From: an uncultured Acidimicrobiaceae bacterium
Lineage (GTDB): Bacteria > Actinomycetota > Acidimicrobiia > Spongiisociales > UBA5794
Length of the DNA: 64,000 bases
Assembly (NCBI GenBank): GCA_947258375.1
Contig: CAMYIJ010000013.1
Coordinates: forward strand, 6,171-70,170
Direction: 5' to 3'
The notes beneath the pieces were generated by a model. The model saw only the letters and a list, made by a program, of their open reading frames with translations, was not told where the DNA came from and did not search any database. Position numbers and translations under genes: made by a program. Below, in pieces: positions 3,000-53,574 of this stretch. The stretch's first letter is position 1, and every line of letters starts with the position of its first letter.

Positions 3000-3767
3000 T
3001 CAACCCGCCGTCAGGCCGCCGTCGATGGGCAGGGCAGCGCCGGTGATGAACCCCGCCTCGTCGGAAGCCAGGTAGAGGACGGCTGCGGCGATCTCTTGAG
3101 GGGTGGCGATGCGGCCGATGGGGTGTTTCTCTTCGAATTGGGGACGGACGGCGGCGATTCCTCCCATCTCCTCCATCTCGCCGCGCAGCATCGGCGTGTC
3201 GACGCTGCCGGGGCACACGCAGTTGATCCGCACACCCTGCCGGGCGTGGTCGAGCGCCATCGCCTTGGTGAGGAGCACCACTGCCCCCTTGGCGGCGCTG
3301 TAGGCGGCGACACCCCGGCCGCCGACCACTCCGAAGTAGGAGGCGTTGTTGACGATCGCTCCGCCGCCGCGAGCCGCCATCACTGCGACGGCAGCTCGCG
3401 ACATGAGGAACGTGCCCGTGGCGTTGACCGCCATCGTCTGGGCCCACTGCTCATCGGTCGTCTCGAGCGCCGATATGTCCCGATAGATGATGCCGGCGTT
3501 GTTGAACAGCACATCGAGCCCACCGAATCGCTCCAGGCAAGCCTCGACGGCGGCGTCGCAGTCGGCAGACTTCCTGACATCGCAAGCCACCGCGTGGGCC
3601 TTGCCCCCCGTAGCCTCGATCTCGGACACCACCGCTTGCGACTCGTCGAGGCGGCGGGCCGCGATGAGCACCCCGGCACCCGCCGCCGCGAACTGGAGAG
3701 CAGCCGCCCGACCGATCCCGGAGTTCCCTCCGGTGATCAGCACGGCCTTGTCCGTGAAGTCGCTCAT
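3000..3767 (-). CDS. Short-chain dehydrogenase/reductase (SDR) family oxidoreductase
   Basis: TGGNSGIGRA Rossmann motif, NNAG, YxxxK (YSAAK). Start ATG overlaps the upstream SDR stop (ATGA at 3764-3767). Confidence 0.9.
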   Translation of the reverse strand: MSDFTDKAVLITGGNSGIGRAAALQFAAAGAGVLIAARRLDESQAVVSEIEATGGKAHAVACDVRKSADCDAAVEACLERFGGLDVLFNNAGIIYRDISALETTDEQWAQTMAVNATGTFLMSRAAVAVMAARGGGAIVNNASYFGVVGGRGVAAYSAAKGAVVLLTKAMALDHARQGVRINCVCPGSVDTPMLRGEMEEMGGIAAVRPQFEEKHPIGRIATPQEIAAAVLYLASDEAGFITGAALPIDGGLTAG

Positions 3768-6462: not shown

Positions 6463-7863
6463 TCAAGACCGTGCCTCCGTCGCGATGAGGTCCCACAACT
6501 GCTCCACGTGGCGTTCGGCCGTGGAGGTTTGGCCAATGGACACCCGGATGAAGGAGACATCGTCGATCTGAGACGGCGTGACATAAGAGTGGCCGGAGCG
6601 GTTGATCGCCTCAGCCAGCGCCAGCGTCGCGTCGTTGCCGGACCGGTGGCGGAAGCTCACCAACGCGAACGGAGTCGGCGCCACCATCTCCAGCCGGTCA
6701 TCGGCCCCGACACGCGACTCGAGCAACCGGGCCAGCCGCACGTGCTCACGAACATGGTGCCTGATGCCTTCCGCACCGTATGAGCGCAGCACGAACCACA
6801 GCTTGAGCGCCCGGAATCGGCGCCCCAGCGGAACGTGCCAGTCGCGGTAGTCGATGACGTCACCCGAGTCCGACGCTCGGTTGCGCAGGTAGGGCGGAGT
6901 GATGCTCATGGCGTCGATCAACGGCTCACGGTCGGCGACATAGAAGACGTTGCAGTCGAAATTGGTGAACATCCACTTGTGCGGATTGAACGTGTACGAG
7001 TCGACGATCTCGAGCCCGTCCTGGTGGTGGCGAAACTCCTCGCAGATCATGGCGGTACCGGCGTAGGCCGCGTCGACGTGGTGCCATATGCCTTCCCTCC
7101 GGGCGATCTCTCCGATGCGGCGCACGGGATCCACCGCGGTGGTCCCGGTTGTGCCTACCGCCGAGCCGACAAAGGCGGGCGTTAACCCGGCCGCCCGGTC
7201 GGCGACGAGTGCGGATTCGAGACCTGCGGGGCTCATGGCGTAGTCGTCGTCGACGGCGATGAGGCGCACATGGCCGTAGCCGGCAACGTTGGCACCTTTC
7301 TCAATCGAGGAATGAGCCTGCGACGAGGTGTAGGCCACCATGTCGCCAGAAGGGATCCCGGCCCGTTTGGCGTGGCGAGCGACGACCAGCGCGGTGTGGG
7401 TCGCGTCCGAGGCACTCATCTGAATCACACCGCCCCCGGGGCCGGTGGTCCGCCATGCCGGCGGCAAGCCGAGGAGGTCGACGAGCCAGTCGACGACCAC
7501 CATCTCGAGCTCCGTCGCCGCCGGGCTTGTCGCCCACAGCATCCCCTGCTGTCCGAGTCCCGAGGACACCAGATCCCCGAGGATCCCCGGCCCGGAGGTG
7601 TTGGCCGGGAAGTACGCGAACCACCCGGGCGATTGCCAGTGGGTCACGCCGGGCATGATGATGTCGTTGAGATCGCCGACTATCGAGCTGAACGGCTCCG
7701 GGGCCTCGGGGGCCGTAGCCGGCAAACCGGCGATGATCTCCCCCGGCTTGACGTCGGGCACGATCCGATGGTCTTCAACCGTCTCCATGTACTGAGCGAT
7801 CCACTCGATCAGCTCCGACCCCGCAGCCCGAAACTCGTCCGGCGTCATGTGATACGAACTCAT
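6463..7863 (-). CDS. Group II pyridoxal-phosphate decarboxylase (aromatic-L-amino-acid / tyrosine decarboxylase family)
   Basis: PLP-lysine motif FNPHKW, ...HVDAAYAG..., N-terminal MSSYHMTPDEFR typical of the DDC/TDC family. Start at M21 of the track ORF. Confidence 0.85.
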   Translation of the reverse strand: MSSYHMTPDEFRAAGSELIEWIAQYMETVEDHRIVPDVKPGEIIAGLPATAPEAPEPFSSIVGDLNDIIMPGVTHWQSPGWFAYFPANTSGPGILGDLVSSGLGQQGMLWATSPAATELEMVVVDWLVDLLGLPPAWRTTGPGGGVIQMSASDATHTALVVARHAKRAGIPSGDMVAYTSSQAHSSIEKGANVAGYGHVRLIAVDDDYAMSPAGLESALVADRAAGLTPAFVGSAVGTTGTTAVDPVRRIGEIARREGIWHHVDAAYAGTAMICEEFRHHQDGLEIVDSYTFNPHKWMFTNFDCNVFYVADREPLIDAMSITPPYLRNRASDSGDVIDYRDWHVPLGRRFRALKLWFVLRSYGAEGIRHHVREHVRLARLLESRVGADDRLEMVAPTPFALVSFRHRSGNDATLALAEAINRSGHSYVTPSQIDDVSFIRVSIGQTSTAERHVEQLWDLIATEARS

Positions 7864-8151
7864 CCCGCCAGGATATCGGATGCCCGAGCCCGTCCAGCAA
7901 AGCGGCGGCAATAGCGAGCGCACCCAGTGGCTCCCCCCGGAGCGACACCCGGAGGGGGGAGGGGCACCGCCCGTAGAGTGGGAAGGGGGGCGCGAGCTCG
8001 AGGTGACTCACGGCTAGAGGTTCACGATCCCCGGAGGCAACAGATCCCTCGCGACGGGGACCACGCCAATGGACGCGCCCCCCTACCCGCCTGCGGCGGG
8101 TCCCTTCCCCCCTCCGGAGGGACACATCCGCGGCCGGCACCGGCGCGCTCT

Positions 8152-24606: not shown

Positions 24607-24659
24607 CCGTCTGTTGTGCATCCAGTGCGTAATAGCACCTCGTGATGCACAACAGACGC
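24607..24659. repeat. Long-spacer palindrome P1 (16-bp arms, 21-nt spacer), related to P2 and P3
   Basis: cgtctgttgtgcatc-N21-gatgcacaacagacg; shares the GTTGTGC core and arm/about-20-nt/arm architecture with P2/P3. 32 nt upstream of the YjeF_N start (minus strand). Confidence 0.6.
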
Positions 24660-24935: not shown

Positions 24936-24991
24936 TGCGTTCGTTGTGCTTAATCCCGGGTCATAGAGCCCGTTTAAGCACAACGAACGCA
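24936..24991. repeat. Conserved palindromic element P2 (18-bp perfect arms, 20-nt spacer); reverse-orientation copy of P3
   Basis: tgcgttcgttgtgcttaa-N20-ttaagcacaacgaacgca; its reverse complement plus flanks (ATGCGTT...AACGCAA.GG) is near-identical to 53000-53062. Lies in the divergent DUF1059 / HAD promoter region. Confidence 0.7.
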
Positions 24992-26886: not shown

Positions 26887-27567
26887 ATGCCTCGCCGCAA
26901 CCGGGTCGACCCATGGGGCGACCTCTACGCCGTGCCAGAACGGGGGATGTTCACCGGAAACCGCGGCTGCCTGGTCGACGATGCGGGGCGCCTGGTGCGC
27001 CATCACAACGGGTCGCTGTGGATCACGTGCGTCACCAGTTTCCGGGATTGGCGTCACCAGCTCGACCAGCCGCACACCTGGACTCCGCTGTTCTTCCTCG
27101 ATGACGCGGTGGCGCTGGCGGCCGGCCATCGACCCTGCGGGCTGTGCCGCCGCCGCGACTACCTGGCATACCAGGCCGCGGTTACGACCGCGATCGGCGC
27201 CGACTCACCGGTGCTGGCGGACGAGCTGAACCGCCGCCTCGCTGCTGAGCGGCTCACGCGGGGCCGCGGCCTCGAGCGAGCCGGCGACCGGATCCTCGCG
27301 AGCAGGCGCCTCGACGATCTGCCGGCCGGCACAGTCATTCTTCACCCGACCGAAGCGACTCCCCACCTGGTCACCGCCCACCGTCTCCAACCGTTCGGCT
27401 TTGACGGATGGGGACCGCCGATCGAGCGGCCCCCCGGACTGAGAGTGCACGTGCTCACGCCACCGACATCGATCGCCGCACTGGCCAACGGCTTCGTGCC
27501 ACGCCTGCACCCATCGGCACCGGTGGCACCGCCGACAACGGGCGTTCAGATGTCACTAAATGCCTGA
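26887..27567 (+). CDS. Hypothetical protein (conserved Cys pair ...HRPCGLCRRRDY...)
   Basis: Protein-like composition; start taken at MPRRNRVDPW (track ORF starts at 26851). No family recognised. Confidence 0.45.
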   Translation: MPRRNRVDPWGDLYAVPERGMFTGNRGCLVDDAGRLVRHHNGSLWITCVTSFRDWRHQLDQPHTWTPLFFLDDAVALAAGHRPCGLCRRRDYLAYQAAVTTAIGADSPVLADELNRRLAAERLTRGRGLERAGDRILASRRLDDLPAGTVILHPTEATPHLVTAHRLQPFGFDGWGPPIERPPGLRVHVLTPPTSIAALANGFVPRLHPSAPVAPPTTGVQMSLNA

Positions 27568-27635
27568 CCGGGAACCTATCGTGTGCCGAAGAACGTCACA
27601 GACCAGGAACCCCACGGGGAAGGTCGGAGGACGCC

Positions 27636-30600
27636 ATGACGACATCTGCTCGCAATCGAAATGCCGCGCTAGTCGGAAGTGGCCTGATCGTCGTTCTGGT
27701 CCTCGCTCTGGTAGCCGCAGTGTGCACGCCCGGCGACGACGGTGACACCCCGACAGTAGAAGGAACAACGCCGGTGACCCCGACCACCCCTGACGCCGTC
27801 TTGGCCCTCGCCGCGCCCGGCGAGCCCCTGTCGGTGCAGCTCAGTGCCGGTACTGCCCAGAACACGGCCGAGGTCGAACCGATCAAGGTCGTCGAAGGGG
27901 AACATCTCGACGACACCGTCGTCGCCTCGATTTTCGATCGTTTGCCCGAATGGCTCCAGCCCGACGAGGACCGCCTCGACTTCAACCGACCGGCCGAGTC
28001 CTTGAAGCCGCCGCTCGTGGGCGACACGATCGACGTGCCCTTCCCCGTCGGAACCGACGATGCGCCTCCGACCGTTCCCACGGGCCCGCTGGAGGTTCTG
28101 CGATACCAGCCCGAAGGACCAGTCGACGTTGCCCCGTTCATCAGCATTACCTTCAACCAGCCGATGGTGCCGCTGGCCACCGTCGAGCAGCTCGACGCCC
28201 TCGAGGTCCCGGTGACCATCACGCCGGAACTGCCGGGCCGCTGGCAGTGGATCGGCACACGAACTTTGCGGTTCGAGCACGAGCCGGATCTGTTCGATCG
28301 GCTGCCCATGGCGACCGACTACCGGGTCGAGATTCCAGCAGGCACGGTTTCGCAAACCGGCGGCGAGCTGGCACAAACAGTGACCTGGGAGTTCAACACT
28401 CCTCCCATCCAGGTGCAGTCGCTCCAACCGCAGGGCGAGTCCCTGCCGCTCGAGCCGATCTTTCTCGCGGTCTTCGACCAGCGAGTCGACCCGACGGCGG
28501 TGCTAGAGACGATCAACCTGACCGCCGACGGAGATGAGCGAGCAATCCGGCTGGCAACCGCCGCGGAGATCGAGAACGACGAATTCGTCGGCAAGCGAGT
28601 CGACGGCCTGCTCGAGGACCGGTGGCTGGCCTTCCGCGCCGACGACGCCTTCCGCCCCGACACAGCCCTACAAATCGAGATCGGACCCGGCACCCCTTCC
28701 GCCGAGGGCCCCAAACTCACGACGGACGGCAGGTCGTTTTCGGCAAGGACCTATGCGCCGCTGCGCATCAGCGACTGGTCATGTCGAGGCAACGACCGCT
28801 GTGAGCCCGGCAGGCAGCTGTACATCGGCTTCAACAATCCACTCGACCTCGAGGCCTTCGACCGCTCCATGATCACCATCGAGCCGGAGCTTCCGGGCAT
28901 GTCGGTCCTCGCCCAACACAGCTCGATCACTATCCGCGGGGCGACGGTCGGGGGCACCACGTACACCGCCACCGTGGCCGGCAACGTGGCCGACATCTAC
29001 GGGCAGACCCTCGGTGATGACGAGGACGTGGAATTCCGGATCAACGACGCCAGGCCGTACCTCAACCAATTCAACGACAGGCTCATAACCCTCGATCCCC
29101 TGGCAACGAAACCCTCCCTGGCGGTCACTTCAGTAAACCACGACAAACTCCGCGTGCGGCTGTTCACGGTCGACATCGATGATTGGAACTCGTACATCGT
29201 CTTCCTGGAGCAGCAATGGGACGAGCGGCGCCACGACCCACCCGCGAACTGGACCGAAGCAGTTGACACGACGATCGACACCAACGCCGACGAGAACGAG
29301 CTCACCGAGACAACCGTCGACCTGAGCGAAGCGCTCGACGGTGAACCGGGCCACGTGATTGTGCTCATCGAGCCGACCGGGCGGCTGGCCGACCTGCCGC
29401 GCGACGACCGCGACTATTGGAGCAACCGCCCCATCGTCGTCTGGGCGCAGTCGACCACCATCAGCGCCGACGGCTTCTCCGACGACGATGAATTGCTGGT
29501 GTGGGCCACCGATCTGCGCAACGGCGAACCCCTAGGCGATGTCGTTGTGACCCTCGCCGGCTCGAACGCGGCCGCAACCACGAACTCGGACGGCCTGGCC
29601 CGCCTGTCCAAACCGGCGTCCTCGACCGACAACGGCTACCTACTGGCCCGCCGCGGCGACGACAGCGCTCTCCTCGATTCGACCTGGCACTGGCATGAAC
29701 CCTCCGACCAATCTCTCTGGTACGTCTTCGACGACCGCCAGATGTACCGGCCGGGCGAGACCGCCCACTTCAAGGGCTGGGTCCGCCGGCTGACGACCAG
29801 CGACGACGCCCAGCTAGCGGCTGTTGGGCCTGATGCGTCGGTCTCTTATCAGGCACATGATTGGTACGGCAACGAGATCGCTACCGGCAAAGTTGCCCTC
29901 AATGCACTTGGCGGATTCGACTTCGAGGTTGAGATTCCCGCCGGCGCCAACCTGGGCCAGGCGGCTGTCAACCTGACGCTCAAACGCGCCGTCGGGCTGC
30001 ACAACAGCCATCACCACAGCTTCCAGATCCAGGAGTTCCGCCGCCCCGAGTTCGAGGTCACGACCCGGGCCGAGACGGAAGGGCCGTACGTTGCAGGCAA
30101 GCCGGCCACCGTTGCCGTCGAGGCCGCCTACTTCTCCGGGGGACCACTACCGGACGCTCCTGTCGAATGGACCGTCACCACCCGTGAAGCCACGTATGCA
30201 CCGCCGAATTGGGACGACTTCACCTTCGGCGTGTGGATCCCGTGGTGGTTCGACAACTTCTACTTCGACGATGTCGGGTACGGACGCGGCGTCGCCTACG
30301 AGGCCGACTACGGCGGTGACATCTGGCCGCCGGTCGACCCGGGCAAGGTGGAGACGTTTGCCGGGTTTACGGACGGCGCCGGCGCCCACTATCTCCGGAT
30401 GGATTTTGGGGGCAACGGCGAAGGCCTGCCCACGACCGTCTCGTCTCAGGCGACCGTATTCGACGTCAACCGCCAGGCGTGGGCGTCGGGGATCGACCTG
30501 CTGGTCCACCCCGGCGAGCTGTATGTGGGGCTGCGGAGTCAGCGCACGTTCGTCGAGACCGGCGACCCGCTGATCATCGAAGCCATCGTCACTGACATCG

Positions 30601-33600
30601 ACGGAGCCGCAGTCGCCGAGCGCGGGGTCACCGTCAAGGCAGGCCGGCTCGAGTGGCAAATCATCGACGGCGAGTGGCAAGAGGTTCCCGTCGACGTTCA
30701 GACCTGTGAGGTCACCTCCGCCGACGAGGCCGTCGAGTGCCGCTTCACGACCGACATCGGCGGGACGTACCGGATCACAGCAACGGTGGCCGATGACGCC
30801 GGCCGTTCCAGCAAGACCGAGTTCACCCGGTGGGTGACCGGCGGCGACCGGCGACCGGAACGCAACGTGGTCCACGAAGAGGTCACGTTGATCCCCGACA
30901 AGCAGGAGTACTCCCCCGGTGATCGGGCGGAGATTCTGGTGGAGGCGCCGTTCGGCGGGGCCGAGGGTCTGCTGACCGTCAGCCGCAACGGGTTTGTCAC
31001 CACAGAGTCGTTCAGCATCGAGGGAACCAGCACTGTGCTGACTGTCCCCATCAAGGATGAGTACATCCCCAACGTGCACATCCAGGTCGACCTGGTTGGC
31101 GCCACCGGGAGGACCACCGACAAGGGCGACCCGCTTCCCGATGCTCCGGACCGCCCGGCGTTCGCCGTAGGCCGCCTCAACCTGCAGGTCCCGCCGCTCA
31201 GCCGCACTTTGGCGGTGGCTGCCGCGCCGGCAGACGCGACGATCGAGCCGGGTGGCACCACCCGGGTCGATGTCACCGTGACCGACGCCGCCGGCAACCC
31301 TGTTGATGGCGCGGAGCTGGCGGTGGTTGTCGTCGACGAGGCCGTGCTCGCTCTGAGCAGCTATGAGCTACCCGACCCGATCAGCATCTTCTACCGGCCG
31401 ATCGACTCGCGGATTTCGAGCCGCTATCTACGGGACTCGATCGAGCTGGCCAACCCGGATCTGCTCGCCGGCGGCGACGATGGCGCCTCGGTTGCCAGCA
31501 CGACGATGGCACCCGGTGGATTCGAGGAAGCGTCCGCCGATCTGGCGGCCCCGGCAGCGGAACTCAGAGCCGCCGGGCAATCGCTCGGCGACGAGGACGC
31601 CGGGCCAGGTGGCGCCATCGATGTCCGCACCAACTTCGACGCCCTGGCAGTCTTCGCTCCCGACGTCACTACCGATGCCGCCGGAAGCGCCACGATCGAC
31701 GTGCCGCTGCCGGACAATCTCACCCGCTACCGCGTGATGGTCGTGGCCGTCGACGGCGCCGACCAGTTCGGCTCCACCGAGTCGAACATCACCGCTCGCC
31801 TGCCTTTGATGGTGCGGCCCTCGGCACCCCGCTTCCTCAACTTCGGCGACGAGTTCGAGCTGCCCGTTGTGCTCCAGAACCAGACGGATGAGGACCTGAC
31901 CGTCGAGGCCGTGATCCAGACCGCCAACCTGAGCCTGACGGCCGGAGCCGGCCGCCGGGTGACGGTGCCGGCCAACGATCGCATCGAGATCCGCTTCCCG
32001 GCCGCCGCCGAGGACGTCGGCACCGCCCGCTTCCGGGTGGCGGCGGTCAGCGGGGCTCTGGCCGATGCCGCCACCATCGCGCTGCCGGTGTACACGCCCG
32101 CCACAACCGAGGCGTTCGCCACGTACGGCGTCGTCGACTCCGGAGTCATCGCCCAGCCGGTGCTGGCCCCTGAGGGTGTGTTCCCGCAGTTCGGCGGCCT
32201 GGAGGTCAACACGTCGTCTACCGCGCTGCAGGCTCTCACCGACGCCGTCATCTACCTCAACGACTACCGCTACGAGAGCGCCGACGCGCTGGCCTCCCGC
32301 ATCCTGGCGATCGCAGCGCTGCGGGACGTGCTCGAGGCGTTCGACGCCGAGCAACTGCCCTCGGCCGCCGAGCTCAACGCTCGGGTCGCCGACGACGTCG
32401 AGGCGCTCCTCCGGCTTCAAACCAACCAGGGCGGCTTCGCCATCTGGCGCCGCACCAACGAGACAATCCCCTATCACAGCATTCAGGCCACCCATGCCCT
32501 CGTCGAGGCCGAAGCCAACGGCTACACGGTGCCGCGCCAGAACCTCGATCAGGCCCTGTGGTATCTGACCAACATCGAAGATTTCTACCCGTCCGATTAC
32601 GGCCAGAAGTTGCGGGACACGCTGAGCGCCTATGCACTGCACGTCCGGGCTGTTTCTGGAGACCGCGACACGAACAAGGCCAACCAGCTGTACCGCCGGG
32701 CGGGCAATGATCTGGCGCTCGACGCACTCGCCTGGCTGTGGCCTGTCGTTGACACCGCGGGCGCCGATGCCGAGATCGAGCGACGTTTCCTCAACCAGGC
32801 CACCGAGACCGCCGCGGCGGCGACCTTCACCACCAGCTACGGCGAGAACGCCTACTTGATCCTGCACTCAGATCGCCGCACCGACGGCATCATCCTCGAT
32901 GCCCTGATCTCCGAGGCCCCGAACAGCGATCTCATCCCCAAGGTCGTGACCGGATTGCTCGGCCACCAGACCCGGGGGCGCTGGAACAACGTGCAGGAGA
33001 ACTCGTTCATCCTGCTGGCGCTGAACAACTACTTCGACACATTTGAGGCCACCACCCCGGACTTCATCGCCCGGATCTGGTTGGGCGACATCTACGCCGC
33101 CGAGCACGAATTCACCGGCCGCACCACCGACCGCGCCGAGACGATCGTGCCGATGGCCGAACTGCTCGAACAGACCTCCGGCGGCGAGAGCAATCTCGTC
33201 GTCAGCAAGGACGGCGCCGGCCGCCTGTACTACAGGCTCGGCCTGCGCTACGCCCCCGACGATCTCGATCTCGACCCGCTCGACCGGGGTTTCGTCGTCC
33301 AGCGCAGCTACGAGGCGATCGATGATCCCGATGACGTGACTCGCGACGCCGACGGAACCTGGCGCATCAAGCCGGGTGCCGAAGTGCGGGTGCGGCTCAC
33401 CATGGTCGCCGACAGCCGCCGCACCCATGTGGCCCTCGTCGACCCGATGCCGGCAGGCTTCGAGGCCCTCAACCCGGCGCTTGCCGTCACTCCACCGATC
33501 CCCCGGGAAGAGTTCGGGGACGACGGCTTCGGCCCTGAGGTCCGCTGGACGTTCTGGTGGTGGCAGTGGTACGAGCATCAGAACCTGCGCGACGACCGGG

Positions 33601-33770
33601 CGGAGGCTTTCGCCTCACTGCTGTGGGCCGGCACCTACGACTACACCTACGTGGCCCGCGCAACGACGCCGGGAACCTTCGTAGTGCCACCGACCAAGGC
33701 CGAGGAGATCTACGCCCCCGAAACCTTCGGCCGATCCGGCTCCGACATCGTGGTGGTCGGTTCGAGCTGA
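27636..33770 (+). CDS. Bacterial alpha-2-macroglobulin family protein (about 2044 aa, membrane-anchored, thioester motif absent)
   Basis: GGAGG RBS 5 nt upstream of ATG 27636; N-terminal anchor ...LVAAVC; MG-domain motif MYRPGETAHFKGW; the region aligning to the CGEQ thioester reads YESA. The track ORF start at 27408 is upstream junk. Confidence 0.85.
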   Translation: MTTSARNRNAALVGSGLIVVLVLALVAAVCTPGDDGDTPTVEGTTPVTPTTPDAVLALAAPGEPLSVQLSAGTAQNTAEVEPIKVVEGEHLDDTVVASIFDRLPEWLQPDEDRLDFNRPAESLKPPLVGDTIDVPFPVGTDDAPPTVPTGPLEVLRYQPEGPVDVAPFISITFNQPMVPLATVEQLDALEVPVTITPELPGRWQWIGTRTLRFEHEPDLFDRLPMATDYRVEIPAGTVSQTGGELAQTVTWEFNTPPIQVQSLQPQGESLPLEPIFLAVFDQRVDPTAVLETINLTADGDERAIRLATAAEIENDEFVGKRVDGLLEDRWLAFRADDAFRPDTALQIEIGPGTPSAEGPKLTTDGRSFSARTYAPLRISDWSCRGNDRCEPGRQLYIGFNNPLDLEAFDRSMITIEPELPGMSVLAQHSSITIRGATVGGTTYTATVAGNVADIYGQTLGDDEDVEFRINDARPYLNQFNDRLITLDPLATKPSLAVTSVNHDKLRVRLFTVDIDDWNSYIVFLEQQWDERRHDPPANWTEAVDTTIDTNADENELTETTVDLSEALDGEPGHVIVLIEPTGRLADLPRDDRDYWSNRPIVVWAQSTTISADGFSDDDELLVWATDLRNGEPLGDVVVTLAGSNAAATTNSDGLARLSKPASSTDNGYLLARRGDDSALLDSTWHWHEPSDQSLWYVFDDRQMYRPGETAHFKGWVRRLTTSDDAQLAAVGPDASVSYQAHDWYGNEIATGKVALNALGGFDFEVEIPAGANLGQAAVNLTLKRAVGLHNSHHHSFQIQEFRRPEFEVTTRAETEGPYVAGKPATVAVEAAYFSGGPLPDAPVEWTVTTREATYAPPNWDDFTFGVWIPWWFDNFYFDDVGYGRGVAYEADYGGDIWPPVDPGKVETFAGFTDGAGAHYLRMDFGGNGEGLPTTVSSQATVFDVNRQAWASGIDLLVHPGELYVGLRSQRTFVETGDPLIIEAIVTDIDGAAVAERGVTVKAGRLEWQIIDGEWQEVPVDVQTCEVTSADEAVECRFTTDIGGTYRITATVADDAGRSSKTEFTRWVTGGDRRPERNVVHEEVTLIPDKQEYSPGDRAEILVEAPFGGAEGLLTVSRNGFVTTESFSIEGTSTVLTVPIKDEYIPNVHIQVDLVGATGRTTDKGDPLPDAPDRPAFAVGRLNLQVPPLSRTLAVAAAPADATIEPGGTTRVDVTVTDAAGNPVDGAELAVVVVDEAVLALSSYELPDPISIFYRPIDSRISSRYLRDSIELANPDLLAGGDDGASVASTTMAPGGFEEASADLAAPAAELRAAGQSLGDEDAGPGGAIDVRTNFDALAVFAPDVTTDAAGSATIDVPLPDNLTRYRVMVVAVDGADQFGSTESNITARLPLMVRPSAPRFLNFGDEFELPVVLQNQTDEDLTVEAVIQTANLSLTAGAGRRVTVPANDRIEIRFPAAAEDVGTARFRVAAVSGALADAATIALPVYTPATTEAFATYGVVDSGVIAQPVLAPEGVFPQFGGLEVNTSSTALQALTDAVIYLNDYRYESADALASRILAIAALRDVLEAFDAEQLPSAAELNARVADDVEALLRLQTNQGGFAIWRRTNETIPYHSIQATHALVEAEANGYTVPRQNLDQALWYLTNIEDFYPSDYGQKLRDTLSAYALHVRAVSGDRDTNKANQLYRRAGNDLALDALAWLWPVVDTAGADAEIERRFLNQATETAAAATFTTSYGENAYLILHSDRRTDGIILDALISEAPNSDLIPKVVTGLLGHQTRGRWNNVQENSFILLALNNYFDTFEATTPDFIARIWLGDIYAAEHEFTGRTTDRAETIVPMAELLEQTSGGESNLVVSKDGAGRLYYRLGLRYAPDDLDLDPLDRGFVVQRSYEAIDDPDDVTRDADGTWRIKPGAEVRVRLTMVADSRRTHVALVDPMPAGFEALNPALAVTPPIPREEFGDDGFGPEVRWTFWWWQWYEHQNLRDDRAEAFASLLWAGTYDYTYVARATTPGTFVVPPTKAEEIYAPETFGRSGSDIVVVGSS

Positions 33771-48835: not shown

Positions 48836-50383
48836 TTACTTCGTCGCCGCGGTCGGTTTGGTGCACTCGACACCCTCAACGGGCCACAGATCCAGCTCCT
48901 GGAGTGCCTCCCGCGCCCGGTGGGCGGCCCAGGACTCGGCCAGGATTCCGTGTTCATCCCAATAGGCGTCCAACTGGGCGCGGCTCCACGTGAGCCGTCG
49001 CTCGATAGCGCACCATCTTGCGTTGGGATCCGACTCCCGGATCGCGATCAGCGCCATCAAGGAATCGACGCTGAGATCCGCCGTGTAGGCCTCGGCGAAT
49101 GTGTCGCCGCGAAGCTCACGGTCCCAATTCAGGTTGACGATGAGGGCGTCGGGATTGGCGACGTTGAGGCCGATGATGAAGACCAGGCCGCTGGCCACCA
49201 GGCCCAGCGCGAAGGAGGCGTGCCGGTTTCGCAGCACGGTGGCGATGAACCAGGCGAGCACGAAGGCAAGCCAAATCATGAAGATCGACGAGTAGAAGCG
49301 CAGCTCGGTGAATCCGAACGAAGTCACGTACAGCCGCATCCGGTTCATGGCGGAGACCATCACGACGCCGGTGAGAACGATGAGAACGATCGCCAACCGG
49401 TCGAATGCCGGCGAGCGACGCCGGTCCTCGGGAAGGGTGAGCCAGTCGAAGAGGAGGAGGAGATTGAGCACCAGGAATGCGACCGTGACCAGCTGGAAGA
49501 AGCCCTCGCGAGCGTTGTCCGAGTAGTCATGGATCCTCTCCAGCTCGGGGCTGTGCCCGACGATCTGGGTGAGCACAAAGAACAGAAACAGTGCGATCAG
49601 CAGCGCCAGGACGGTGATGCCCGTCGTGAAATCGACCTTGTCCGGCTTCACCGTTTCCTCGGGAGCGTCGCCGGGACGGCGCACCGACCGCCACAGACCG
49701 GCAATTGCCAGACCGAGAATCGCCCCGATGACGAGTCGCCAGAAAATGCTGCCGAAGAGGATGCTCTGGGCGAACCGATCCAGGTAGTCGCTGAATACCA
49801 CGTCCGCCGACGCGAACAGCCCGGCGAACACGATCAAGAGCGGTGTCCCCAGCAGCAGACCGACCCCGACTGACCGCAGACGCTTGCGGTGTTGATCGCC
49901 GAAGCTTTGCGGCAGATCGCCCGAAAGGAAGTCTCGGGAGCCCATCGCCATCTCCGCGCCGGTTACGAATGGTTGACTCCCGTAGTCGGTGATGGTCCAG
50001 TTCGTGAGGCCGCCGGTTCTGTGTAGTTGGGCCAGAACGGCGATCACGGCGATCGTGGCCCCGAGGTTCAAGCTGAGCAGCACCGGCGACGTGCGGATTC
50101 CGATGAACGCGGCGACCGCCAAGCCCGCCAGGAGAACTGGCACCGTACCGGCGGGCCGTGGCTCACCGAGAAGTGAGCTCACCGACGCCGCGATGGCCAG
50201 GGCGATCCCCATCCCGAGCATCAGCCCGAGACCGGGCGGCTGATGTAAGGCCAGAGTGTCGATGGCGAGGCCGATCACCAGGGCCAGGCCGAGGACAAAC
50301 CAGGGACGGGCAAATGTTGCGGTCGGGTCCGAGGTATCGGTTGCGGGCTCGGGAGAAGTGACGGTGCTGTCAAGGTGCTGCAT
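48836..50383 (-). CDS. Large polytopic membrane protein (DUF4153/DUF4173-like)
   Basis: About 12 TM helices from MQHLDSTV... (M159 of the track ORF); the upstream 158 aa of the track ORF are GC-frame noise. Confidence 0.65.
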   Translation of the reverse strand: MQHLDSTVTSPEPATDTSDPTATFARPWFVLGLALVIGLAIDTLALHQPPGLGLMLGMGIALAIAASVSSLLGEPRPAGTVPVLLAGLAVAAFIGIRTSPVLLSLNLGATIAVIAVLAQLHRTGGLTNWTITDYGSQPFVTGAEMAMGSRDFLSGDLPQSFGDQHRKRLRSVGVGLLLGTPLLIVFAGLFASADVVFSDYLDRFAQSILFGSIFWRLVIGAILGLAIAGLWRSVRRPGDAPEETVKPDKVDFTTGITVLALLIALFLFFVLTQIVGHSPELERIHDYSDNAREGFFQLVTVAFLVLNLLLLFDWLTLPEDRRRSPAFDRLAIVLIVLTGVVMVSAMNRMRLYVTSFGFTELRFYSSIFMIWLAFVLAWFIATVLRNRHASFALGLVASGLVFIIGLNVANPDALIVNLNWDRELRGDTFAEAYTADLSVDSLMALIAIRESDPNARWCAIERRLTWSRAQLDAYWDEHGILAESWAAHRAREALQELDLWPVEGVECTKPTAATK

Positions 50384-50572
50384 GTGGGAACCAACGACTC
50401 CCGACTGGTACGAGTTCCCATAGTGGTCGGATTCGCCACTTTGGGCAGCCGGCGCCGGACCGCCGGCGCGGCAATCCGCCGAGCCGGAGTGACTTCGGCC
50501 TCTGGCGGCCGGCACCGGGCGGCGATAGGTTCGAACTGGGCTGACACACACTGCCGGCGGGAGGGAGAAACC

Positions 50573-52438
50573 ATGAGGAACCCGTTCCAGCGTGATCTGG
50601 TCCTGCTCCACCCTCCCTCTGTCTACGACTTCCGGTCCCGAGAAATCTTCATGGGCCCCATCGCGGATGCAGTCCCGTCCACGAGCGCGTTTGAGATGTA
50701 TCCCGTGGGATTGACGAGCATCGCCTCGTTCCTGGAGAAGAACCACTACAACGTTCAAATCGTGAACCTGGCCTATCGGATGATGAAGGACCGGAAGTTC
50801 GACGTCGACCGGTACCTCGCTCGAATCGACGGCACCGTCTTCGGCATCGACCTCCATTGGCTACCGCATGCACAGGGCGGCCTCGCACTCGCAGAACTCC
50901 TCAAGAAGCACCACCCGGAGAGCTATGTCCTCTTCGGTGGCCTGTCCGCGAGCTACTACCACGAGGAGCTGATCCGATACCCGTTCGTGGACTTCGTTGT
51001 ACGCGGCGACTCGACCGAGGAGCCCGTGCGCCAGCTACTCCAAGCTCTGCGTCGGAAGACGCCACTCGAGGAAGTGGAGAACCTCACGTGGAAGCGGGCC
51101 GATGGAACTCCGGCCGTCAACGGGCTTACCTTCATCCCGCAGGACCTCGACTACGTTGACGTCCCCGACTACCGCTACGCCCTCCGATCCGTTTTCAAAT
51201 ACGGGAATCTCGACAACCTCATCCCCTACCTCGAATGGATGCGCTATCCGATAACCATGCTGCTCAACAGCCGGGGTTGCGCCGAGAATTGTGCAGTGTG
51301 CGGGGGATCCGTCAGTGCCTACCGCCAGATCTGCGATCGCACGCTGCCCGCCTATCGGTCTCCCGAGAAGCTGATCGAGGATGTCCGGACGATCGCCAGT
51401 TTCTCCCGCGCCCCCATATTCATGGTGCACGATCCCCGCATGGGAGGTATGGCGCGCTGCACCGCCTTCTTTGCCCAACTGGCTGAGCTGGACCTGGCCA
51501 ACGAACTGGTGCTCGAACTGTTCTTCCCCGCCGGCGACCACCTCTTTGAGATGGTGTCGGCAAGCGTCGATAAGTGGAGCGCCCAAATCACAATCGAGTC
51601 GCCTGTGGAGCGCCTGCGTCGGATCAACGCCAAGTTCCCCTTCTCCAATGCGGCACTCGAGGACACCATTCAGTCCGCCTTCGACAACAACTGCCAGAAG
51701 CTCGACATCTTCTTCATGGTGGGGCTGCCCCACCAATCGTACGATGACGCGCTCGTCGCAGTCTCGTACTACGACTACCTGCTTCATCGATTCGAGCGCA
51801 TGGGACCTATCCATGCGTACGTCGCACCGCTCAGCCCATTTCTCGATCCCGGCAGCCGGGCCTTCGAGAACGCCGAGTTCGGCTACCGGGTTCGGTACCA
51901 CTCACTCGAGGAACACCGCCAGGCCCTGCTGCAGCCGTCCTGGAAGGACATCCTGTCGTACGAGACCGATGCCATGAGTCGGGAGGACCTGACCCGGGCG
52001 ACCTACCACGTTGCTCGTGAGCTCAACCACCTCAAATACCGCCACGGCCTCATCGACGCCGCCACTTACAACAGCGTCGGATTTCGGCTGCGCACCGCCG
52101 AGTCGGTGCTCGCCGACCTCGATCACGCGGCCGCGCTGCCTCTCGAGAAGCGAGCCGAAGCACACCGCCGGATCAGGGAGAGGGTACGAATGACCAACGG
52201 CTCGACGCTTTGTGGTGAAGATGAGATGAAGTGGCCCTTGTCGCAACGTTTCCATCTGGGGGCCACCTTGGCGCGCGGCCTCGCGGCGGGACTCGGCAAC
52301 GAAGTAACCCACACTCTTGCGCGCCTGCGCGGGCAGTTCGACACCGCTCCCTACACAGGCGTGCGCGCTGAACCGCACAGTCTGCGGGCCACGGCACTGA
52401 GCCCGCCGACGATGGATCGGGAAACGGTCGCCGAGTGA
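50573..52438 (+). CDS. B12-binding-domain radical SAM protein
   Basis: GGGAGGGAG RBS; N-terminal cobalamin-binding-like domain; CAENCAVCGG (CX3CX2C radical SAM cluster motif). Track ORF start 50375 rejected. Confidence 0.85.
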   Translation: MRNPFQRDLVLLHPPSVYDFRSREIFMGPIADAVPSTSAFEMYPVGLTSIASFLEKNHYNVQIVNLAYRMMKDRKFDVDRYLARIDGTVFGIDLHWLPHAQGGLALAELLKKHHPESYVLFGGLSASYYHEELIRYPFVDFVVRGDSTEEPVRQLLQALRRKTPLEEVENLTWKRADGTPAVNGLTFIPQDLDYVDVPDYRYALRSVFKYGNLDNLIPYLEWMRYPITMLLNSRGCAENCAVCGGSVSAYRQICDRTLPAYRSPEKLIEDVRTIASFSRAPIFMVHDPRMGGMARCTAFFAQLAELDLANELVLELFFPAGDHLFEMVSASVDKWSAQITIESPVERLRRINAKFPFSNAALEDTIQSAFDNNCQKLDIFFMVGLPHQSYDDALVAVSYYDYLLHRFERMGPIHAYVAPLSPFLDPGSRAFENAEFGYRVRYHSLEEHRQALLQPSWKDILSYETDAMSREDLTRATYHVARELNHLKYRHGLIDAATYNSVGFRLRTAESVLADLDHAAALPLEKRAEAHRRIRERVRMTNGSTLCGEDEMKWPLSQRFHLGATLARGLAAGLGNEVTHTLARLRGQFDTAPYTGVRAEPHSLRATALSPPTMDRETVAE

Positions 52439-52965
52439 GCGGCCTGCTGATCCGCCCCGAACGCCCGGCCGACAACGCGGCGATCCGGGTGCTCGTTGCC
52501 GCGGCGTTCGAGTCGGAGACTGAGGCCGACCTCGTTGAGGCGATCCGGACGTCGGAGCACTACATCGCAGAGATGTCGCTCGTCGCAGAGCTGGAAGGCG
52601 AGCTGGTCGGGCACGTCATGATCAGCGGCGCCACGCTCAGATCACGCACCGAAGAACGCCCGATCGTCATGCTGGCGCCGCTCGCAGTCGCTCCGGCACA
52701 CCAGCGAGCGGGTGTCGGCTCGGCACTGGTGCGGGTCGTGACAGGGCTGGCGGACGAGCGCGGCGAGCCGCTTGTCGTCGTGGAGGGTGGCCCCGCGTAC
52801 TACCGCCGCTTTGGCTTCGAGCCGGCATACGAGCACGGCATCGAAATCACAGTGCCTGATTGGGCGCCCCGGGAAGCCGGCCAGGTGCTGCGGTTGAGCG
52901 CCTACGACGCTTCGCTTACCGGTTCTGTGGTGTACCCGCCGACGTTCGACGCCTTTGCCGAGTGA
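52435..52965 (+). CDS. GNAT family N-acetyltransferase
   Basis: GTG start overlapping the radical SAM TGA (GTGA). Acetyl-CoA motif ...QRAGVGSALVRVVTGLADERG... Confidence 0.8.
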   Translation: MSGLLIRPERPADNAAIRVLVAAAFESETEADLVEAIRTSEHYIAEMSLVAELEGELVGHVMISGATLRSRTEERPIVMLAPLAVAPAHQRAGVGSALVRVVTGLADERGEPLVVVEGGPAYYRRFGFEPAYEHGIEITVPDWAPREAGQVLRLSAYDASLTGSVVYPPTFDAFAE

Positions 52966-53001: not shown

Positions 53002-53057
53002 TGCGTTCGTTGTGCTTAAACCGGCTCTATAGGTGGCGATTAAGCACAACGAACGCA
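53002..53057. repeat. Conserved palindromic element P3 (18-bp perfect arms, 20-nt spacer); same family as P2
   Basis: tgcgttcgttgtgcttaa-accggctctataggtggcga-ttaagcacaacgaacgca; flanks ATGCGTT... and ...AACGCAAAAGG are also conserved with the reverse complement of P2. 46 nt upstream of the OsmC-like gene start. Confidence 0.7.
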
Positions 53058-53103
53058 AAAGGCTGGCGCCGCGGCGCTACATTCCCCACCAAGGAGGTGG
53101 CTG

Positions 53104-53574
53104 ATGTCAGATGTGGCATATCGTTCAGTTGTGAAAATCGAAAGGGTGGCGGGGCCGATGCGCAAAGCGTGGCTTCCCGCCAGAGACGAGCACGTCACGT
53201 TCGGTGTGCACAGCGAGGTGGCCGAACACTACGGGGTCGACCAGGACGCATACCCGGCGGATGCCACCACTCTCGACTACGTCATCGCCGCCACAGGTGG
53301 CTGACTGACCGGCACCCTGGGAGGCGCGCTGGAGGCGCGCGGCATTGACGCAAGTAACGGAAACCTCACCTCGGAGACCGTGGGTGAGATAGAGAAGGAC
53401 GGCAAGGTCCTCGTCATAAAGCGGATCCATGTCACCTACACATTGAAGGGTGTCGAGGGCGACGAGGACCGCGAGAAGGCGGAGCGTGCTCACGGGTTCC
53501 ATGCCGACTACTGCCCGGTGGCACGCAGCATTCGCGACAGCATCGCGATCACAACCGAGCTCAGCTACGCCTGA
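53104..53574 (+). CDS. OsmC/YhfA-family peroxiredoxin-like protein with an in-frame TGA (candidate selenocysteine) at 53302-53304
   Basis: AAGGAGG RBS 7 nt upstream of ATG 53104. Track ORFs 53104..53304 and 53380..53574 lie in the same frame, separated only by TGA. The joined product reads ...DYVIAATGG-U-LTGTLGGALEARGID..., aligning with YhfA ...LMAAGGC-SAIDVV..., so the TGA sits on the peroxidatic Cys; the second Cys is ...HADYCPVARS. A GC hairpin (GCGCGC-UGGAG-GCGCGC) lies about 20 nt after the UGA. Confidence 0.55.

Follow-up and report, generated by a model that had tools for sequence, protein, structure and literature searches.

The gene at positions 53104-53574 of a 64,000-nucleotide stretch of contig CAMYIJ010000013.1 (assembly GCA_947258375.1), from an uncultured Acidimicrobiaceae bacterium, very probably encodes a selenocysteine (Sec)-containing, OsmC-like redox protein with an in-frame selenocysteine insertion sequence (SECIS); the whole 64-kb stretch that was analyzed is termed the window in the following. 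A preliminary description of the window had proposed this selenoprotein on the basis of an in-frame TGA codon, and the proposal is now supported by conservation of the TGA, by homologs with Cys in its place, by purifying selection, and by a downstream hairpin that is tied to the presence of the TGA. Our confidence in this reading is high; it is not higher because the presence of the decoding machinery in the source genome remains the doubt.

Reading Frame and Protein

The gene occupies a single frame on the forward strand, from the ATG at 53104 to a terminal TGA at 53572-53574, and its sole internal stop is the TGA at 53302-53304, the candidate Sec codon. The frame consists of 157 codons including the terminal TGA, and its product of 66 amino acids, U67, and 89 further amino acids (156 residues in total) confirms the joined frame with a lone in-frame TGA that had been proposed; plain open reading frame (ORF) finding splits the gene into 53104-53304 (66 aa) and a same-frame downstream ORF. 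The start codon is preceded at a distance of 6 nt by the Shine-Dalgarno sequence AAGGAGG (53091-53097, forward strand, read from the sequence), in agreement with the strong ribosome-binding site noted earlier. With Cys substituted at the TGA, residues 57-152 matched the Pfam OsmC profile PF02566 with 46.9 bits against a gathering cutoff of 27.5 bits (E = 4e-12); the protein is a member of the Pfam OsmC/Ohr superfamily and, as had been claimed, a complete OsmC-like product, for which full-length colinear homologs exist. Relative to OsmC/Ohr proteins, it has an N-terminal extension of approximately 45 residues. The residues around the TGA read VIAATGG-U-LTGTLGGALEARGID in the window protein, and the clade peptide across the Sec site is ...AAxG-U-LTGTFGGALEAR; the second Cys that the preliminary description had seen in the motif HADYCPVARS is present as well, as Cys137, encoded by the TGC codon at 53512-53514 (forward strand).

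Conservation of the UGA Codon and Its Replacements

Homologs were collected by a database protein search, and the DNA of the matches was fetched. They fell into three kinds: full-length proteins of approximately 157 aa with W or L in the TGA column; more distant full-length proteins with Cys in this column (GGCLTGT); and many proteins of approximately 89 aa, from metagenome-assembled genomes (MAGs) and isolates at NCBI, all of which start with MTGT..., one codon past the site. In an Acidimicrobiia MAG (L001), in Ardenticatena maritima (L002 and L003), and in Egicoccus sp. (L004), an ORF of 66-69 aa stops one base before the truncated gene call, and the junction codon is TGA. The DNA of one of the proteins with W in this column (L007) also reads TGA, so that its W results from translation under an alternative code.

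Scanning a genome collection yielded 80 loci, the best of them 79% identical to the window protein, and all 80 have TGA at the same codon; going by the titles of their records, they come from Acidimicrobiia, Nitriliruptorales, Anaerolineae, Caldilineaceae, Ardenticatenaceae, Dehalococcoidia, Desulfobacterales, Acidobacteriota, NC10, Poribacteria, and others. Family members lie, among others, on the complete chromosomes OZ252150.1, OZ241372.1, CP070694.1, and CBDCGU010000003.1, as well as in Ardenticatena maritima (LGKN01) and Egicoccus (JBGUAX01), both of which are in culture. Starting from a more divergent subclade (peptide LLGTF[RSA]GAL[AV]AR), a scan of metagenomes added 80 further loci, of which one, L131, remained unparsed; TGA was found in all 79 parsed loci. 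Over both Sec-type subclades, TGA is present at this codon in all but two of 167 sequences, which makes 165 with the window counted (the window itself, 5 loci reached via truncated gene calls, the 80 genome loci, and the 79 metagenome loci); the remaining two, which are two contigs with one gene, have TTA. The TGA-bearing sequences span at least six bacterial phyla and include Acidimicrobiia, Nitriliruptoria, Chloroflexota, Desulfobacterales, Acidobacteriota, NC10, and Poribacteria.

Across 68 aligned full-length database homologs, the TGA column contains W in 43 sequences, Cys in 22, and Leu in three. The 43 W entries presumably represent TGA translated under another code, as confirmed for L007; all close-relative DNA that was fetched reads TGA. 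The Cys codons, TGT or TGC, were confirmed in the DNA of three Cys forms (L088-L090); together with the 22 Cys homologs, they bear out the suggestion that TGA stands in place of a Cys codon. The TTA variant belongs to the closest full-length database homolog, P0001 (L005:3202-3204 and L006:3202-3204, on contigs of up to 5.86 Mb), in which TTA (Leu), one nucleotide apart from TGA, occupies the site while an intact hairpin (GGC GCG CTG GAA GCG CGC) is retained downstream; it looks like a recent replacement of Sec by Leu, perhaps in a lineage where Sec decoding has been lost. Leu in this column is also found in P0014 and P0052.

The codon directly 3' of the UGA, CUG at 53305-53307 (forward strand), is an unusually conserved synonymous site: it is CTG in 71 of 76 distinct sequences, and the entropy of its third position is 0.41 bits. 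The resulting UGA-C context would be expected to disfavor termination and to favor decoding.

A Hairpin Tied to the UGA Codon

The preliminary description had also pointed to a GC-rich stem-loop about 20 nt after the UGA; this hairpin, GCGCGC-UGGAG-GCGCGC, is located at 53324-53340 (forward strand) and begins 19 nt downstream. The RNAalifold consensus of the codon-aligned DNA gives a stem of 7 bp, in which 53324-53330 pair with 53334-53340 and a U-G pair closes the apical loop GGA (53331-53333). The structure covers codons +7 to +12 (G-A-L-E-A-R) with the consensus stem G-GCGCGCU / RGCGCGC-Y, and 98.5% of the alignment cells in the stem are pairable. At the third positions of the arm codons +7, +8, +9, and +11, entropy drops to 0.40, 0.18, 0.18, and 0.18 bits, compared to 1.3-1.9 bits at flanking four-fold sites. 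Among 123 distinct sequences with TGA, the arms are encoded by GCG in 120, CTG in 121, and GCG in 120; Gly+7 is encoded only by GGC or GGT and Arg+12 only by CGY or CGA, each variant being compatible with pairing, and the control codons Gly+3 and Thr+4 use all four of their forms. The amino acid of the loop codon varies in the second subclade (E, A, V, G, S; for example GTA, GGA, TCA, GCA), and the third base of this codon, which closes the stem opposite the U of CUG, is a purine in 122 of the 123 sequences.

The Cys forms serve as a control for this codon pattern. Three homologs that have Cys at the site and that keep or nearly keep the peptide GGALEAR use scattered synonymous codons (GGT GCG CTT GAG GCA CGG; GGA GCA CTG ...; ACC GCA TTA GAA GGT AGA), and their fold energies of -6.9, -6.3, and -2.1 kcal/mol compare with -12.9 kcal/mol for the window. 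With arm codons frozen in the TGA forms and scattered in the Cys forms, the constraint at the RNA level therefore applies only where the codon is TGA, and the hairpin at 53324-53340 behaves, by sequence comparison, as a candidate SECIS. Its position and the G residues of its loop agree with what has been published on bacterial SECIS elements. Among bacterial SECIS elements (Escherichia coli fdhF type; bSECIS consensus), it resembles the known ones in forming a stem-loop in coding sequence a short distance past the UGA and in carrying G residues in its apical loop; it differs in being very short, in being nearly invariant across phyla (GGCGCGCUGGNRGCGCGY), and in starting 19 nt after the UGA instead of immediately, with SelB binding predicted only. 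The bSECIS model allows 16-37 nt between UGA and loop, and the distance in the window is 26 nt.

Two members of the Nitriliruptoria, L004 (Egicoccus, 3016-3048) and L082, use different hairpin codons (GGT GCC CTC GAR GCA CGY) and fold a longer hairpin with a 9-bp stem at the same place (GGGGGUGCC...GGCAUCCCC; -17 to -18 kcal/mol), which appears from its sequence to be a SECIS remodeled in one lineage.

Selection and Stop Codon Usage

Relative to seven relatives, the ratio of nonsynonymous to synonymous substitution rates (dN/dS) ranges from 0.08 to 0.28 over the 60 codons upstream of the TGA and, where estimable, from 0.07 to 0.36 over the 48 codons downstream of it; dS is mostly above 1 and thus near saturation, and the upstream half of one pair was too saturated for an estimate. 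Both sides of the TGA are thus under purifying selection, which means that each half is also translated. The ordinary stop codons of 45 predicted genes in the window are TGA (24), TAG (19), and TAA (2). Reassignment of the genetic code, in the style of code 4 or code 25, is excluded by these counts, since no stop is used more often in the window than TGA, with which the OsmC-like gene itself also ends.

Redox Residues, Fold, and Predicted Mechanism

In a profile alignment, the U column coincides with the first conserved Cys of the solved proteins Ta0195 (ASC-LLTTF), 2opl (LSGC-LTTSL), and 2pn2 (LASC-MLT); Cys137 (CPVARS) aligns with the second Cys of the same proteins, as well as with that of OhrB, and is unchanged in 69 of 69 aligned family members. 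An AlphaFold model of P0055, a natural Cys-form homolog with 52% identity to the window protein, has a predicted local distance difference test (pLDDT) score of 94.4; its top 50 matches in the PDB are all members of the OsmC/Ohr family, with template modeling (TM) scores of up to 0.74, in keeping with the alpha/beta fold of OsmC. The model places the Sec/Cys position in a long central helix and the second Cys at a kink between C-terminal helices. Alignment and model thus predict the two-redox-residue layout of OsmC/Ohr proteins, with one residue in the central helix and the other in a C-terminal C-P/C-x motif.

The same fold, with TM scores of 0.6-0.74, is found in the OsmC/Ohr two-Cys hydroperoxide reductases (E. 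coli OsmC, 1qwi/1nye; Ohr, 6eb4/1usp), and in the uncharacterized OsmC-like proteins Ta0195 (2onf) and E. coli YhfA (1ml8). These proteins have their two redox residues at equivalent positions, one on the central helix and one, close to the C-terminal helix, in a C-P/C-x-x motif; in contrast to them, the first Cys is replaced by Sec in the clade of the window, and sequence identity is only 9-20%. The sole significant sequence match in the PDB is Ta0195 (E about 1e-3). Solely from the fold and the positions of these residues, and by analogy to the characterized enzymes, we infer a putative thiol-dependent hydroperoxide reductase activity.

Following the established bacterial mechanism, the UGA at 53302 would be decoded by Sec-tRNA(Sec) during translation: the Sec-specific elongation factor SelB, bound to the conserved hairpin that lies in frame 19 nt downstream (53324-53340), would deliver Sec-tRNA(Sec), and the UGA-C context would lower termination by release factor. 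On the pattern of OsmC/Ohr, U67 would act from the long central helix, at the first or peroxidatic-type position, and attack a peroxide or another oxidized substrate; the resulting selenenic acid could be resolved by Cys137, the resolving-type residue, to form a selenenylsulfide, which a cellular thiol reductant would then reduce. The data themselves show the conserved TGA, the Cys of homologs, the OsmC fold, selection on both halves of the gene, and an RNA-level constraint tied to TGA, from which we infer that Sec is inserted in the source organism, that SelB binds the hairpin, and that the protein acts as a peroxidase with a physiological substrate and reductant of its own.

Sec-Decoding Machinery and Points Against a Selenoprotein

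Several observations weigh against a selenoprotein at this locus. No genes for Sec decoding were detected nearby: ARAGORN found no tRNA, and thus no tRNA-Sec, in the 64-kb window; Pfam searches found no SelA, SelB, or SelD among 20 window genes of appropriate size; and tblastn of the window with E. coli SelA, SelB, and SelD queries gave no match. In the single sequence of the window, the region downstream of the UGA folds no better than its shuffles (z = +0.88), and the hairpin being unremarkable in this sense, its significance derives entirely from the comparative data, which are very strong. These consist of conservation and not of classical covariation, with zero double compensatory changes in the main hairpin register. 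Rfam gave no match at gathering or E-value thresholds, although bacterial SECIS elements are not modeled in Rfam. The window protein also fails the NCBIfam model NF041052, 'OsmC-related (seleno)protein', with 14.2 bits against a cutoff of 95. Finally, the peroxidase role is only presumed for this distant OsmC clade, with its identity of 9-20% to solved structures.

Related loci and the literature provide some context for the decoding machinery. In one family member, the Anaerolineaceae MAG L075, a selA gene (6758-8131; PF03841 with 470 bits, plus a Se-cys_synth_N domain) is located approximately 2 kb upstream of the OsmC-Sec gene, with a response-regulator gene between them; selA linkage was found in none of the other related loci, and no tRNA-Sec lies beside the OsmC-Sec gene in 56 related loci. 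selA is abundant in Chloroflexota. A SelB-like match in L016 turned out to be BipA, and another in L010 is an N-terminal GTPase fragment at a contig end. Within the class Acidimicrobiia, selA, selB, selC, and selD have been reported for all genomes of the order Actinomarinales (2026 preprint). A scan of the window for other selenoprotein genes with a single in-frame TGA returned only adjacent same-frame genes; its sensitivity was low, and its threshold of more than 0.72 for GC content at third codon positions (GC3) also missed the OsmC-like gene itself, the upstream half of which has a GC3 of 0.71.

Alternative Explanations for the In-Frame UGA

The UGA could be recoded without Sec, if a near-cognate or suppressor tRNA (for example for Trp, Cys, or Gly) read through the codon and the hairpin were a generic stimulator of readthrough instead of a SelB-binding SECIS. 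The missing Sec machinery in the 64-kb window and the W that some pipelines place at this codon would fit such recoding; yet the W is a gene-caller artefact, as the TGA in the DNA of L007 demonstrates, and TGA is a normal stop in the window. Homologs with Cys at exactly the catalytic position of U67 are a hallmark of Sec/Cys pairs, the hairpin agrees with what is described for bacterial SECIS elements both in its position and in the G of its apical loop, and selA adjoins the gene in L075; on balance, readthrough by another tRNA is unlikely.

A second alternative would produce two polypeptides: an N-terminal peptide of 66 aa that ends at the TGA, and an 89-aa fragment made by re-initiation at CUG, which together form a split OsmC fold. 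The unusual conservation of CTG after the TGA (71/76) and the NCBI annotation, which begins the downstream ORF at this CTG, speak for re-initiation, but there is no ribosome-binding site ahead of the CUG, and the split would remove precisely the catalytic residue, which is Cys in homologs and which the P0055 model puts midway along a long helix. Re-initiation also leaves unexplained why a frozen hairpin is found 19 nt downstream, and why it is lost in Cys forms, and we regard a split protein as highly improbable.

The pseudogene that the preliminary description had kept as its alternative, a decaying OsmC-like gene inactivated by a change from Cys to stop, could account for the two ORFs given by standard gene callers, and the change to TTA (Leu) in a related lineage demonstrates that the position can be lost, but it is effectively excluded by the comparative data: the identical TGA in 165 sequences from at least six phyla, the low dN/dS on both sides of the TGA, the intact ribosome-binding site, the RNA-level selection on the downstream hairpin, and a lack of further stops or frameshifts, the lesions in orthologs that would have been a sign of decay.

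Relationship to Known Selenoprotein Families

The Sec-containing OsmC-like protein of the window belongs to a kind of selenoprotein that has been known for two decades. The statement in the preliminary description that OsmC-like proteins are among the reported prokaryotic selenoproteins is correct: an 'OsmC-like protein' family (COG1765/YhfA, PF02566, motif UxxT) was described from the Sargasso Sea with three Sec sequences (Zhang, Fomenko and Gladyshev, 2005), and OsmC-like selenoproteins reappear in the 2008 Global Ocean Sampling analysis (five sequences) and in reviews of 2022 and 2026. The further suggestion that a Sec-containing member in this lineage would be worth documenting is weaker than claimed, given a family published since 2005 and the Sec machinery reported in Acidimicrobiia.

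The window protein shares with the published family an OsmC/COG1765-type domain, Sec at the position of the first redox Cys, the existence of Cys homologs, and a downstream SECIS hairpin with guanosines in its loop. It differs in its motif: instead of UxxT, the sequence is U-L-[TLAI]-G-T in the window and throughout the 165 Sec members, with G at +3 and T at +4; in the window it takes the form U-L-T-G-T (Thr at +2 and +4, Gly at +3), whereas the C-L-T-T of the solved protein 2opl is what UxxT would resemble. The published family, represented by AACY01145085, MBR72571.1, and MCS5647933.1, is also rare and marine, with three and five sequences, in contrast to a clade of approximately 165 Sec genes from sediment, soil, and MAG data in at least six phyla. 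NF041052 belongs to the same superfamily and aligns weakly (protein residues 55-153 to positions 41-140 of the 144 in the model); against 69 family members, its best E-value was 2.6e-5, and none came near the cutoff.

The U-L-x-G-T clade may thus be a distinct, uncatalogued family of selenoproteins within the OsmC superfamily, separate from both the UxxT family and NF041052, in which Sec is by far the dominant state across at least six phyla, the SECIS fixes nucleotides and the peptide GGAL-x-AR, and public annotation splits the gene into two ORFs; we advance this tentatively and with slightly less than even credence, the clade being set apart from the published family by description.

In public records (L001:1297-1767, L002:2797-3276, L004:2800-3288, and other NCBI records), the gene is mis-annotated as a hypothetical protein of 66-69 aa followed by an 'OsmC family protein' of 88-95 aa with a CTG start after the TGA; JGI and other pipelines give full-length proteins with W at the TGA. 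The split annotation by PGAP, a 66-aa hypothetical protein and a truncated 'OsmC family protein', is consistent with the failure of NF041052.

Upstream Palindrome and Gene Neighborhood

The preliminary description had linked the gene to a conserved palindromic element 46 nt upstream. The palindrome is indeed found at this distance, at 53002-53057, with perfect arms of 18 nt (TGCGTTCGTTGTGCTTAA / TTAAGCACAACGAACGCA) and a spacer of 20 nt, and ends 46 nt before the ATG; it is, however, a repeated intergenic element of the source genome and not part of the selenoprotein system. A second copy at 24936-24991 has identical 18-nt arms and a 20-nt spacer, and a third, diverged copy at 24608-24658 has arms of 15 nt (CGTCTGTTGTGCATC); all three carry ATAG at the center of spacers that otherwise differ. 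The core of the arms was absent from all 90 related loci searched, and no promoter or terminator consensus was found in the palindrome region. The element may be REP-like, or an operator.

Directly upstream of the OsmC-like gene, a GNAT acetyltransferase gene (52435-52965) is common to the window and the Acidimicrobiia MAG L001 (740-1273); members in other phyla have unrelated neighbors (lactate permease, CorA), and there is no operon conserved across the family. Synteny and protein identities of 74-81% place the window near Acidimicrobiia MAGs; synteny with the Acidimicrobiia MAG L009 supports the assignment to class only. Farther upstream, the gene at 50570-52438 (forward strand) encodes a protein of approximately 620 aa with a B12-binding domain and a CxxxCxxC motif, possibly a B12-dependent radical S-adenosylmethionine enzyme, and the gene at 48836-50857 (reverse strand) a DUF4153 membrane protein; neither has an evident link to the selenoprotein. 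Elsewhere in the window, an ORF of 2120 aa at 27408-33770 (forward strand) has a strong coding signature with a GC3 of 0.83.

Implications

The finding opens no new mechanism and resolves no long-standing question; its relevance lies in annotation, in the physiology of the host, and in the overlap of coding and structural constraints. With a profile for the U-L-x-G-T clade, well over a hundred records would be corrected, and Acidimicrobiia, Chloroflexota, Desulfobacterales, and others would gain a selenoprotein in their inventories. The gene also marks its host as a likely Sec-decoding actinobacterium, and the clade offers a very clean natural case of overlapping protein and RNA constraint, in which the putative SECIS fixes synonymous sites across phyla and relaxes its hold once the codon is Cys.

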